NCBI GenBank assembly: GCA_038882655.1 | Contig: JAVZNT010000002.1 | Coordinates: forward strand, 32,001-96,000 | From: Candidatus Bathyarchaeia archaeon | GTDB lineage: Archaea; Thermoproteota; Bathyarchaeia; Bathyarchaeales; Bathycorpusculaceae | Direction: 5' to 3' | Length of the DNA: 64,000 nt | Shown: one piece after another, positions 26,389 to 64,000 of the stretch | Layout: each line of letters opens with the position of its first letter | How positions within the stretch are numbered: position 1 is the stretch's first letter | Translations under genes and position numbers: made by a program | Notes under the pieces: model-generated | Told to the model about the DNA's origin: nothing | Seen by the model: the letters and a program-made list of their open reading frames with translations, nothing else | Databases searched by the model: none

Positions 26389-26546
26389 AGCCTACACCAA
26401 CCTAATTGGTGTATGTGTCTGCTTGAAAGGTTTTGCTATCTTTTGCCCATACGTTCTAAAAGTTCATATTCGCGGCAAAACTCTTAATACCCCATTAAAA
26501 GCCCTAAATGCCAAAGGGGCATTAAACTATTTTGACGGGTGCTAAA

Positions 26547-27683
26547 ATGGAATGTGAAAAGGAAACAAGGACTTTTTTGCAGGGAAGCGAAGCGTGTGTA
26601 GAGGCTGCGCTAACTGCTGGATGCAGATTTTTTGCTGGCTATCCCATTTCGCCAGCTAATGAGATTGCCGAGCACATGGCAGCGCGTCTTCCAAAGGTTG
26701 GCGGCATATTCCTACAAATGGAGGATGAGCTAGCCTCAATAGGGGCTGTTGTCGGCGCAAGCTGGTGTGGTGTTAAGGCAATGACGGCTACTTCTGGACC
26801 GGGCTTCAGCTTAATGCAAGAAACCATAGGCTGGGCTTTCATGACTGAAACGCCATGCGTCATCGTTGACGTTCAGAGGGTTGGACCCGGTACTGGTCAA
26901 GCGACCAAGTGTGCGCAGGGCGATGTTATGCAGGCGCGGTGGGGAACCCATGGCGATTACATGGCTGTTTCGCTTTGCCCCAACTCCGTCCAAGAAGTTT
27001 TTGAACTTAGTATTAGGGCGTTCAACCTTGCAGAAAAATATCGCACACCAGTCACTTTGCTAACAGATGAGACTACAGTGCATCTTAGAGAGCATTTAGT
27101 TATACCACCCTTGGAAAACATAGAGATAGTTAACCGCAAAAAGCCAAAGGCTGGAGAGCAAGTCTTCTTCGGCTTGGAGGATGTCGCACCCATGCCATCC
27201 ATAGAGGAAGGGTTCAATGTAGCTGTTACTGGCTCAACCCACGACGAACGGGGGGTTAGATTTACTGCTGACCCAGTTGTGCATAGGCGGGTGATAGAGG
27301 CGATTAACAACAAGATAAGGAAAAACGTGGATGATATTGTGGAAGTGGAGAGCTACAACATTGAAGACTGCAAGGTGGGCATGGTGGCTTACGGCATTAC
27401 CTCACGCGCAATCTATGAGGCTGTCGAAGAAGCAGAAAAAAGAGGTGTAAAAGTTGGCTATGTCCGCCTAAAAACCCTTTGGCCCTTCCCGGAAAAGCCG
27501 GTGCAGAGGCTTGCGGAAAACGCTGAAAAAATAATTGTGCCGGAAATGAATTTGGGGCAAATAGTCAACGAGATTAAAAGGGTTGCTGGCTGCACAGAGG
27601 TCGTTCCGCTCAACAAGATAGGCGGCGGCGAACTAATCACTCCAGAAGAGATTTTAGAAAAGATTTTGAAGGAGGCGCAATGA
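26547..27683 (+). CDS. korA: 2-oxoacid:ferredoxin oxidoreductase alpha subunit
   Basis: GYPISP, QMEDE, TATSGPG, QRVGPGTG, PEMNLGQ. Confidence 0.9.
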   Translation: MECEKETRTFLQGSEACVEAALTAGCRFFAGYPISPANEIAEHMAARLPKVGGIFLQMEDELASIGAVVGASWCGVKAMTATSGPGFSLMQETIGWAFMTETPCVIVDVQRVGPGTGQATKCAQGDVMQARWGTHGDYMAVSLCPNSVQEVFELSIRAFNLAEKYRTPVTLLTDETTVHLREHLVIPPLENIEIVNRKKPKAGEQVFFGLEDVAPMPSIEEGFNVAVTGSTHDERGVRFTADPVVHRRVIEAINNKIRKNVDDIVEVESYNIEDCKVGMVAYGITSRAIYEAVEEAEKRGVKVGYVRLKTLWPFPEKPVQRLAENAEKIIVPEMNLGQIVNEIKRVAGCTEVVPLNKIGGGELITPEEILEKILKEAQ

Positions 27684-61254: not shown

Positions 61255-61444
61255 GTGAATGGTTATAAAGTTTTTGAAAACGTTATTGAAAAATTAATTA
61301 AAAATTAAGCCTTCAGCTGTAAATAAGCAACTAAAAACCTATAAAAAATTTTTAGAGCTGAAATTTTTCTCTTAAAAATGCTTATTACCAAAAACAGCCA
61401 CTGAATATAGCTGCAAACAAGCAAAGGGAACAGTGACAGCAAAC

Positions 61445-63274
61445 ATGTGTGGAATATTTGGCTGTATTTTAAAGGAGGGCGCCGCTGCACCGCTAATACA
61501 TCACGCCCTTAGAAGGCTTGAATACCGTGGCTACGACTCCGTAGGTGAAGCAACAATCCACGAAGGAAAACTCTACATTAAAAAGGACAGCGGAAAAATA
61601 GACGACGTTCACAAAATCCATAACCTTGACGACTTGCCCGGTTTTATAGGTATAGGTCACACGAGATGGGCTACACATGGGGCGCCATTAATGATTAACG
61701 CGCACCCCCATGTTGATTGCAGCGGTCAAATAGCTGTAGTCCATAATGGGATTATTGAGAACTTCGCGGAACTGAAGCTTGAACTTGAAGGAAAAGGACA
61801 TACTTTCCAGTCCAGAACGGATACAGAAGTTATAGCCCACCTTATTGAGGAGGCGTTTAAAACAAATCCTTCTTTTGGGCTTGTGGATGCTGTTCTGGCG
61901 GCTTTGCAGAGTCTGGACGGTTCCTATGCGATTGCTGTTATTTCGCCAAAAGAACCAGACAAAATAGTTTGCGCTAGACACGAAAGCCCGCTTGTTGTAG
62001 GAATTGGAGAAAACGCGCTTTATTGCGCCTCGGACATTCCAGCTTTTTTACCATTAACCAATAAGGCGGTAATAATCGAAGACGGAGAGCTGGTAACCCT
62101 ATCTTTTGAAGGTCTTGAAATTAAAAGAATTGCAGACCTAAGCCCTGTCATCCGGGAGCCAAAGCTTATCGACTGGACTCCTGAAATGGCTGTTAAGCAA
62201 GGCTATCCCCACTTCATGTTGAAGGAAATCCATGAGCAACCCGTATGTTTACGAAACACTTTGAGACTGCAGGAGCATTATCTTGATTTGATGGCGACGT
62301 TCTTGGATCGCGCTAAAGAAGTGTTCCTTGTGGCTTGTGGCACATCATATCATGCTTGTTTGGCAGCATCCTATATGTTTTCTAAACTCGCTTTTCTAGC
62401 TACATATCCAGTAATAGCCTCAGAATTCATCGAGCAACACGGAAAATCAGTAAACATCGACAGCACCATCTTGGCTGTAAGTCAATCAGGCGAAACAGCA
62501 GACACGCTTGCCGCAGTAAATGCTGCCCGCCAAAGAGCAGCAACGGTTCTCGGGCTTACAAACGTTATCGGCTCAACACTAACAAGGGTTTCACGAGTCT
62601 ACATCAGCCAGCAGTCCGGTCCCGAAATCGGTGTAGCTGCAACCAAAACCTTCACTTCGCAGCTTTCGGTTCTCGCCCAGCTTGCGCTAAGGCTTGCAAA
62701 GAAGAGGGGAAAAATTTCTCAGGATGAAATGGACTTTATAGATGCGAAGTTAAAGAAGCTTCCAGAAATCGTGGAAACCGTAATCACCACACAAGAGGAG
62801 AAAGTAAAGAGCATAGCGAAAAAGTACAAGGATGCAAAGGTTTTCTTCTTTTTAGGACGGGGTATAAGCACAGCCACAGCATATGAAGGTAGACTTAAAC
62901 TTATGGAAATAGCCTACATCCCGTCAATTGCTTTTCCAGCTGGTGAAAGCAAACACGGACCGATAAGCCTCGTTGAAGAAGGGTTCCCAGCGGTTTTCAT
63001 ATGTCCCAAAGACGATACGCATAAGACCATTATAGGGAACATTATGGAGATGAAAGCCAGAGGAGCCTCAATAATAGCCATCATTGAAGAAGGTGACGAG
63101 GAAGTCAAAAGGCTAGCGGACGATTATGTTGAAGCGCCAAAGGGCATACCGGACGTTTTGTCACCCATACCCTTCGCTGTTCCACTGCAGCTCTTGGCCT
63201 ATTACATGGCTGTTGAAAGGGGACACGACCCTGATCAGCCTAGAAACCTAGCAAAATCTGTGACCGTAAAGTAG
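61445..63274 (+). CDS. glmS: Glutamine-fructose-6-phosphate transaminase (isomerizing)
   Basis: MCGIFG, LEYRGYDS, GHTRWATHG, SQSGETAD, KHGP, PRNLAKSVT. Confidence 0.97.
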   Translation: MCGIFGCILKEGAAAPLIHHALRRLEYRGYDSVGEATIHEGKLYIKKDSGKIDDVHKIHNLDDLPGFIGIGHTRWATHGAPLMINAHPHVDCSGQIAVVHNGIIENFAELKLELEGKGHTFQSRTDTEVIAHLIEEAFKTNPSFGLVDAVLAALQSLDGSYAIAVISPKEPDKIVCARHESPLVVGIGENALYCASDIPAFLPLTNKAVIIEDGELVTLSFEGLEIKRIADLSPVIREPKLIDWTPEMAVKQGYPHFMLKEIHEQPVCLRNTLRLQEHYLDLMATFLDRAKEVFLVACGTSYHACLAASYMFSKLAFLATYPVIASEFIEQHGKSVNIDSTILAVSQSGETADTLAAVNAARQRAATVLGLTNVIGSTLTRVSRVYISQQSGPEIGVAATKTFTSQLSVLAQLALRLAKKRGKISQDEMDFIDAKLKKLPEIVETVITTQEEKVKSIAKKYKDAKVFFFLGRGISTATAYEGRLKLMEIAYIPSIAFPAGESKHGPISLVEEGFPAVFICPKDDTHKTIIGNIMEMKARGASIIAIIEEGDEEVKRLADDYVEAPKGIPDVLSPIPFAVPLQLLAYYMAVERGHDPDQPRNLAKSVTVK

Positions 63275-63342
63275 CGCAATACAAATTTGAAATGCAAATC
63301 AGTTAAATGCCTAATCCACTTATCTTGGTATGGTGCAAAAAC

Positions 63343-64000
63343 TTGGAGGTAGACTGGGAACGGCTAATCGAGAATCTGATAAAAGAGGGCGTACTCCGCT
63401 CCCAAAAAGTGATTAAGGCGATGCGCAAAGTGCCTCGAACTAAGTTTCTGCCAGAAAACATGCGATCCTACAGCACTGTAGACACGCCTCTTCCAATTGG
63501 TTTTGGGCAGACGGTTTCAGCGCCACATAGCCTCGGCTTTCAGCCCGGCTAGGCGAAACATGGTTGCAATAATGAATGAAGCCCTTCAATTGGAAGTGGG
63601 CGACAAAGTCCTCGAAGTGGGGGCAGGTTCAGGCTGGCATGCCGCCACAATAGCTGAAATAGTGGCGCCAAGCGAAGCGCCTAGAAGCGAATGGGGACAC
63701 GTCTACACGGTCGAAATAATTGAGGGACTGGCGGAATTCGCAAGAAGAAACATAATGAAAGCAGGATACGGTGACCGAGTCACAATAGTCTGCAGGGACG
63801 GCTCCATGGGCTACCCAGAAAAAGCGCCATACGACAAAATAGTTGTTACAGCAGCAGCCCCAGACATACCAAAACCCCTAGTCGAACAGCTGAAAAACGG
63901 CGGAGTAATGCTTATACCCATTGGAAGCATGCACCTATTCCAAAGCTTGATAAAAGTTATGAAAAGCGCTGATGGAAAAATTAGGCAAGAAAATCTCGGT
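63343..64000 (+). CDS. pcm: Protein-L-isoaspartate O-methyltransferase, interrupted by a 31-nt insertion (exon 1 about 63343-63526; exon 2 from 63558 past the window end)
   Basis: Exon 1: VPR..F, DTPLPIGFGQTVSAP. Exon 2: HMVAIMNEAL, VLEVGAGSGW, DGSMGY, APYDKIVVTAA, QLK.GG. Confidence 0.93.
63527..63557 (+). other. Putative bulge-helix-bulge (BHB) mRNA intron in pcm
   Basis: CGCC(63521-24)/GGCG(63552-55) 4-bp central helix; 3-nt bulges ACA and AAA; intron stem TAGCC/GGCTA; excision restores CCA-CAC-ATG. Confidence 0.85.

Follow-up and report, generated by a model that had tools for sequence, protein, structure and literature searches.

Does the pcm gene of this Candidatus Bathyarchaeia archaeon, whose two halves lie in different reading frames on either side of a short insert, give one protein from a spliced message, two separate polypeptides, or no functional product? 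The question is raised by the last part of the window, i.e., the whole 64,000-nucleotide stretch of DNA that was analysed (G000:C2:32001-96000), which belongs to a genome of 1.02 Mb in 27 contigs that is 84% complete. In the window, glmS (61433-63274) directly precedes pcm. The N-terminal pcm ORF (63307-63552, 81 aa) ends in ...GFGQTVSAPHSLGFQPG at an in-frame TAG (63550-63552), and the C-terminal part runs in another frame from an ATG at 63560 through the window end (MVAIMNEALQLEVGDKVLEVGAGSGWH...), its complete length being 162 aa (L001:1507-1992). The PCMT/PIMT family PF01135 matched the N-terminal part at profile positions 4-62 (E 4.3e-15) and the C-terminal part at profile positions 61-196 (E 3.7e-40); because the two parts abut in the profile, they represent a single domain cut in two at one point. 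In a tblastn comparison with an intact orthologue, exon 1 covered residues 4-62. Both halves are conserved without further disruptions, and they form the only true pcm of the genome, the remaining three PF01135 matches being weak methyltransferase look-alikes. ARAGORN detected no tRNA in the window, and Rfam detected no family at E up to 1 in 63300-63800. A sequence-only reading of this DNA had described a PIMT motif broken by 31 extra nucleotides that shift the frame and contain a TAG; all of its coordinates were verified, with the insert located at SAPH/MV (Table 1).

Table 1. Coordinates of the pcm and cbf5 features; plain numbers are window positions.
Feature	Position	Strand	Remarks
pcm exon 1	63307..63526	+	start codon uncertain; last nt is the first letter of the His codon in SAPHMV
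Closing G	63520	+	single pair with C63559, the whole of the exon-exon helix
Central helix H, 5' strand CGCC	63521..63524	+	exon: Ala codon letters 2-3 and Pro codon letters 1-2
5' bulge ACA	63525..63527	+	predicted cut after C63526
Candidate pcm intron, 31 nt	63527..63557	+	5' bulge nt 3 through 3' bulge nt 2
Intron hairpin h'	63528..63551	+	stem 63528-32/63547-51; apical stem 63535-38/63542-45
Central helix H, 3' strand GGCG	63552..63555	+	intron
3' splice-site triplet AAA	63556..63558	+	predicted cut after A63557
pcm exon 2	63558..64000	+	continues 48 nt past the window; stop codon included, end at G000:C2:96048
Candidate cbf5 intron, 23 nt	L147:1476-1498, within L147:1470-1500 (G000:C8:36950-36980)		between letters 1 and 2 of the catalytic Asp codon
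pcm junction with covarying hairpin, families f56/f60	G267:C78:2552-2606
pcm junction with covarying hairpin, families f56/f60	G288:C143:4714-4768
pcm junction with covarying hairpin, families f56/f60	G281:C29:1844-1898
pcm junction with covarying hairpin, families f56/f60	G309:C2:52934-52988

Structure of the Candidate Intron and the Splice Rule

The fold claimed for the locus, with a central helix (C63521-G63555, G63522-C63554, C63523-G63553, and C63524-G63552), ACA and AAA bulges, intron and apical stems, and a G63520-C63559 closure, is present as described. Its exon side had been called short and imperfect, which agrees with the comparison of relatives, where no conserved exon-exon helix was found. 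Taken alone, the fold of the window is weak evidence and not exceptional: the minimum free energy (MFE) of 63505-63575 has a z-score of -1.52, 13 of 200 shuffled sequences folded equally well or better, and the MFE structure pairs the exon GUUUC (63514-63518) with GAAAC (63555-63559), sequestering the 3' triplet instead of bulging it. It represents more than chance because the same site and geometry recur in 102 of 117 distinct related loci, with pairing above that of shuffled and slid controls. A repeat or MITE as the source of the intron was rejected, since allowing up to 4 mismatches revealed no second copy of its sequence in the genome.

Cutting after the second nucleotide of each bulge had been proposed to restore both frame and motif. 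This rule regained SAPHM(V/I) in all 102 related introns (28-46 nt) and restored the motif in 12 further introns of 21-57 nt at junctions of families f20 and f35, which were read by eye. When the cut was shifted one nucleotide later, Leu replaced His in 3 of the 102, those with a 5' bulge ending in T. The letters of the rebuilt His codon come from the second bulge position (C throughout), from the third position of the 3' triplet (A throughout), and from the closing C or T. Without splicing, Pro would be followed by H, Q, or L. In the window, the codon is composed of C and AC across the junction, so that the predicted spliced protein reads SAPHMVAIM, with SAPHMVAIMNEALQLEVGDK spanning the junction, and the unspliced reading ends in ...SAPHSLGFQPG. 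Since A63527 and A63558 are the same letter, excision of 63528-63558 would yield an identical product. Cuts between bulge residues 2 and 3 are also predicted for the cbf5 intron in PMC2738675.

Conservation and Covariation among Relatives

The PF01135 profile was searched over 60 relatives from the same order. The pcm gene was uninterrupted in 10 genomes, carried an in-frame interruption with stops in 7, and was split near profile position 60 in the rest. Loci from these relatives and 80 more from metagenome-assembled genomes (MAGs), the added ones mostly from hot-spring MAGs of Candidatus Bathyarchaeia, were combined into a junction set of 139 loci, 117 of which were distinct. An insert at the identical nucleotide was present in 102 of the 117 and absent in 15. 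The inserts were 28 (n = 7), 29 (n = 8), 30 (n = 10), 31 (n = 37), or 32 nt (n = 35) long, with one each of 33, 34, 35, 40, and 46 nt. The register was fixed from the coding flanks alone, and therefore no structure was fitted.

Helix H was fully paired over 4 bp in 102 of 102 loci, as CGCC/GGCG in 97, CACC/GGTG in 3 (compensatory), and CGCC/GGTG in 2. The 5' bulge was always 3 nt long (ACA 98, TCT 3, and TCA 1), as was the 3' triplet (AAA 76, AGA 19, ATA 4, and ACA 3), and the closing pair was G-C in 101 loci and G-T in one. The inner helix h' began at the 5' bulge in every locus and continued without interruption for 3-11 pairs; the mean length was 6.4 pairs vs. 3.96 when the arms were exchanged between sequences (maximum 4.4 in 200 trials). 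In a MAFFT alignment, the named structure was paired in 96.8% of cells compared with 89.2% in shuffles (0 of 500 as high), and partners slid by 1-3 columns were paired in 14-42% of cells. Changes on both sides were observed for 6 of 6 stem pairs of h' (94.2% of cells paired) and for 1 of 4 pairs of helix H, where the double changes were three replacements of G-C by A-U. From the alignment as sole input, RNAalifold predicted helix H (columns 29-32/75-78), a 3-nt bulge, h' (columns 36-41/69-74), and nothing else. The exon-exon helix h of the strict hBHBh' form was absent from this consensus of 102 introns, which has one closing pair only; consequently, the motif is assigned to the relaxed (HBh'-like) type rather than to the strict BHB. 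Two checks suggested beforehand, covariation of the stems in pcm orthologues and retention of the BHB geometry in their inserts, thus came out in favour of the intron: the hairpin pairs covary, compensatory changes are seen in the central helix, and its 4 bp with 3 nt on each side are kept throughout the 102 loci.

The Ala codon feeding helix H was GCG in 99 of the 102 intron carriers, and the three GCA carriers all had a compensating intron T. In the 15 intron-less genes, the same codon was GCA in 8, GCT in 3, GCG in 3, and GCC in 1. This exon synonymous site is thus constrained by RNA structure only where the intron is present.

Single-sequence MFE folds left the 5' bulge unpaired in 98 of 102 cases; the 3' triplet was unpaired in 47 and paired to exon UUUC in 35. 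The rival helix GUUUC/GAAAC was 87.5% paired in the alignment; two of its pairs had 33 and 22 unpaired cells, and the two that were paired in every sequence are invariant. In a column test, C24 occurred with G80 in 6 of 16 sequences vs. T24 with G80 in 11 of 79. As judged from these columns, covariation neither supports nor excludes this exon helix, which could be a competing conformer or irrelevant. The outer helix may be dispensable for EndA, as it is in relaxed tRNA motifs; otherwise, the alternative pairing would compete with splicing.

Distribution of the Interrupted pcm

In a sample of 151 Bathyarchaeia genomes, pcm was detected at E of 1e-28 or better in 134. It was interrupted at this site in 33 genomes (22 split and 11 in frame with stops, as counted from the table), and 3 were ambiguous through contig ends. 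Within the sample, interrupted pcm was confined to the window's own order and families f20 and f35. The 12 junctions of these two families, six from each, contained inserts of 21, 21, 21, 22, 22, 25, 31, 34, 47, 48, 48, and 57 nt, and read by eye, 12 of 12 shared helix H, which is CACC/GGTG in three of them, as well as the arrangement of the bulges. The 21-nt introns are in frame and contain TGA. A thirteenth fetched locus proved to be an intact paralogue with SSPYVVA, the second copy of genome G191, whose match starts at profile position 38. Two pcm-like genes each were observed in 14 genomes, and their matches were uninterrupted except for this second copy. None of five near-complete genomes of family f1, genus g17, reached the same E threshold of 1e-28 for pcm, and one of them (G029) gave a weak methyltransferase match only; this absence looks like gene loss.

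A strict junction pattern was matched in 26 of 401 Thermoproteota genomes, counts that are lower bounds since the pattern misses variants, and the backwards control pattern gave 0. Of these matches, 22 belonged to the window's order and 4 to families f56 and f60, which are placed in another class of the same phylum (Table 1).

When 128 spliced proteins were placed in a quick maximum-likelihood tree, 8 changes were needed to explain the 15 rows lacking the intron (shuffled mean 14.4; 0 of 500 as low), and these rows were nested in intron-bearing clades. The tree is unrooted and most of its forks are weak, the well-supported branches by themselves forcing only 1 change. The pcm intron appears to be old in Bathyarchaeia, and several precise losses would be the simplest reading of this unrooted, weakly forked tree.

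Splicing Machinery and the cbf5 Intron of the Same Genome

Two genes with the EndA catalytic domain PF01974 were found in the genome, at G000:C4:39988-40545 and G000:C3:68252-68812, complement strand. The first (185 aa) has its best matches among crenarchaeal catalytic subunits (2cv8_A, 5e-45; 3p1z_B, 4.7e-39; 2zyz_B, 1.5e-32) and carries Tyr, His, and Lys at positions that we take to be the catalytic triad. The second (186 aa; best match 1a79_A) is 34% identical to the first and has Thr at the position of its His. The pair is likely a catalytic and a structural subunit, which we infer to assemble as (alpha-beta)2. The K39-P40-K41 segment of the first protein aligns without gaps to the K44-P45-R46 loop of A. 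pernix EndA, a loop which, according to PMC3241643, gives broad substrate specificity and whose K44 is needed to cut relaxed motifs. An RtcB ligase is encoded (E 4.3e-180), and ARAGORN predicted 26 tRNA genes in the genome, 7 of them with introns. The host thus encodes both an EndA of the type accepting relaxed motifs and an RNA ligase.

The cbf5 gene of the same genome (contig C8) is also split: one frame ends in GHGGTLEA and a stop, and another resumes with GNPNVTGVLPV, the second part having no start codon at the junction. The build comprises a 4-bp CCCT/GGGG helix, bulges AGA and AAA, and a 5-bp hairpin with a 6-nt loop, with no outer helix, and the rule of cutting after bulge nucleotide 2 removes 23 nt and yields T-L-D-P-N-V. 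This junction splits the catalytic Asp codon after its first letter, as PMC2738675 describes for the crenarchaeal cbf5 intron. The putative cbf5 intron, whose build is the same as that of the pcm intron, serves as an internal positive control. By location, the pcm intron is not of the cbf5 type, as its host is pcm and cbf5 has an intron of its own: the mechanism would be the same and the intron a different one.

A genome-wide scan combining structure and ORF joining returned 1025 matches under loose settings vs. 1180 in the reversed genome. With 100-codon flanks, the counts were 9 and 13, and pcm was missed because exon 1 is shorter than the flank; with 40-codon flanks, they were 124 and 232, and both pcm and cbf5 were recovered. 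Since the reversed genome gave higher counts each time, the structural scan is powerless on its own. When each half of 35 other candidates (introns up to 35 nt) was searched against Pfam, none had both halves in one family. The only suggestive candidate (DUF655, C6) was rejected, being contiguous in the downstream frame. The candidate at 26519-26560 of the window (G000:C2:58519) is a gene boundary, not an intron, as its downstream half starts POR_N at profile position 1 and its upstream half has no family.

RNA and Protein Evidence

Four sequencing runs (X1-X4) were compared as contigs at 88% likeness; the label of X1 and X2 reads 'RNA? (probably DNA)'. One X2 contig joins 63526 to 63558, an exact 31-nt skip, with a depth of 9.75 and 28 letters on the shorter side, in a library that is probably DNA. 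The other X1 and X2 contigs keep the insert, X3 covers exon 1 only, and X4 gave no matching contig. Because intron-less relatives exist, the X2 junction contig may derive from their DNA; it is a hint of splicing and not proof.

In a collection of 5.8 billion proteins, no spliced full-length protein exceeded 91% identity to this pcm. Among the best 120 matches, 112 had 158-168 aa, one had 185 aa, and seven had 225 aa; the last are intron-less relatives, 80-81% identical, on contigs of up to 234 kb. Public gene calls are thus mostly the C-terminal fragment beginning at the motif Met (those 112 of the best 120), with the N-terminal exon omitted, and many of these short calls are listed by NCBI and JGI as protein-L-isoaspartate O-methyltransferase. 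These fragment calls indicate that the pcm intron has gone unnoticed by gene callers.

Proposed Mechanism and Alternative Explanations

The reading that we prefer, with a probability of about 0.88, is an archaeal endonuclease-type intron (BHB, relaxed) in the pcm coding sequence that is cut by EndA and joined by RtcB. The sequence-only reading had concluded tRNA-type splicing of a protein-repair mRNA, and the covariation, the restored motif, the EndA and RtcB genes, and the cbf5 intron all argue for it; EndA and RtcB very probably splice this intron. In the pre-mRNA, the exon CGCC of the Ala and Pro codons would pair with GGCG at the 3' end of the intron, placing a 3-nt bulge of the 5' strand between helix H and the intron hairpin. 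A second 3-nt stretch would follow the helix on the 3' strand, closed by the single G-C pair. The two-subunit EndA is expected to cut after nucleotide 2 of each triplet, and RtcB to ligate the exons, the 31-nt intron presumably being circularised. The junction would rebuild the His codon and give an uninterrupted PIMT with SAPHMV. Cleavage and ligation are thus predicted to occur, and unspliced mRNA would probably give no active enzyme.

A split gene, in which N-terminal (81 aa) and C-terminal (162 aa, from ATG 63560) polypeptides assemble and the hairpin is an unremoved spacer coupling or regulating translation, would accommodate several observations. Exon 2 starts one base ahead of an ATG, which allows separate translation of the C-terminal part; gene callers choose exactly the 162-aa ORF, in line with the lengths of the best protein matches; and a spliced product was recovered neither among the protein matches nor as a firm RNA junction. 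However, that Met is the family's own motif residue, present in 15 of 15 intron-less genes, and a spacer needs neither a 4-bp helix using exon letters, nor two exact 3-nt gaps, nor an invariant A and C/T before the ATG. Nor would it account for a His rebuilt in 102 of 102 introns, whereas the unspliced reading varies after Pro, or for the cbf5 gene of identical build, whose second part cannot start at its junction. Two assembling polypeptides are, on this balance, quite improbable.

Translational recoding, with ribosomes bypassing or shifting frame over the hairpin in the manner of phage T4 gene 60 and the RNA left uncut, draws on the stable hairpin immediately after the break and on the in-frame stop within or shortly past the insert. 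It lacks frame-keeping take-off and landing codons, the sole matched pair seen by eye (CAU 63526-63528 and CAU 63559-63561) being out of frame; the insert lengths of 21-57 nt fall in all three classes modulo 3; and the covarying pairing joins exon nucleotides with the distal end of the insert, in endonuclease geometry. Recoding is accordingly given very little credence. Decay or artefact, i.e., a pseudogene with a small palindromic insertion or an assembly error, would explain a broken frame followed by a stop, yet many independent assemblies contain the insert, which was found in 102 distinct loci whose halves are free of other breaks. It also lies in the sole pcm of the genome, is not a repeat, and is carried by X1 and X2 contigs, which leaves this explanation a negligible probability.

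Within the preferred reading of a spliced intron, splicing could act as a switch, PIMT being made only when EndA and RtcB process the mRNA. Pairing of the 3' triplet with UUUC could then gate the cut in response to temperature or stress, as an archaeal counterpart of HAC1/XBP1, and the excised 21-57-nt circles might be small RNAs. We regard this as conceivable but unlikely; if true, the repair of damaged proteins would be coupled to the machinery of tRNA splicing and RNA repair.

Significance and Comparison with Known Systems

A literature search found no report of a pcm intron, with subscription journals outside its coverage and an earlier mention therefore possible. As of 2020, the only BHB intron reported in archaeal mRNA besides the HVO_1309 leader was that of cbf5, according to PMC7714728, and a 2025 paper on these enzymes (PMC12397907) cites only cbf5 work for mRNA. 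The pcm gene would be the second protein gene, after cbf5, with an endonuclease-type intron, and a second host gene would show that such introns in protein genes are no cbf5 oddity. More than 100 covarying natural variants of 21-57 nt, together with repeated precise losses, would provide a natural mutagenesis series for a two-subunit EndA in a non-tRNA context. The intron would also be a clear case of RNA structure limiting synonymous codon choice, and a possible regulatory role of such introns in expression could be tested on it. In most of the related public records listed (112 of the best 120 matches), gene callers shorten pcm to the 162-aa fragment; metabolic reconstructions of Bathyarchaeia therefore contain a gene model that is systematically wrong, and annotation of archaeal MAGs should take introns into account.

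The cbf5 pre-mRNA intron of Crenarchaeota was reportedly described by Watanabe et al. in 2002. Like it, the pcm intron is short, lies in a codon of a conserved motif, has a relaxed or unconventional BHB with predicted cuts between bulge nucleotides 2 and 3, and occurs in a host with a hetero-oligomeric EndA; the distribution is patchy in both, with gains or losses among relatives. Crenarchaeal cbf5 introns are treated by Yokobori et al. (2009; PMC2738675). In contrast to cbf5, which encodes an RNA pseudouridine synthase, pcm encodes a protein-repair methyltransferase, and its intron is found in Bathyarchaeia and in 4 genomes of another Thermoproteota class, at the His codon of SAPHMV. Splicing of cbf5 has been demonstrated by cDNA, whereas that of pcm is predicted from sequence.

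Relaxed HBh'/BHL motifs also occur in non-canonical tRNA introns, which are cut by (alpha-beta)2 EndA and are said to have been described by Marck and Grosjean in 2003. The pcm intron shares with them a 4-bp central helix, one good 3-nt bulge between two helices, and a second site without an outer helix. As in the hosts of such introns, the EndA loop is of the crenarchaeal type, with Lys-Pro and a basic residue (PMC3241643). Unlike tRNA introns, the pcm substrate is an mRNA without a tRNA body, and half of its central helix is codon-constrained.

In Haloferax volcanii, HVO_1309 has a BHB intron in the 5' UTR of its mRNA, as stated in PMC7714728, and thus provides, as predicted for pcm, an EndA substrate in mRNA. 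Unlike the pcm intron, it lies in an untranslated leader and interrupts no reading frame, and the EndA of that host is homodimeric. The mRNAs of HAC1 and XBP1 undergo unconventional splicing, in which IRE1 cuts and a tRNA ligase or RtcB joins; PMC13149111 also mentions this system. Their endonuclease is unrelated to EndA and acts on other motifs, and stress regulation is established there, whereas it is speculative for pcm. Common to HAC1/XBP1 and the predicted pcm system are a short frame-changing intron in the mRNA of a protein-quality-control gene, an endonuclease acting on paired stem-loops, and joining by a tRNA ligase with no spliceosome.
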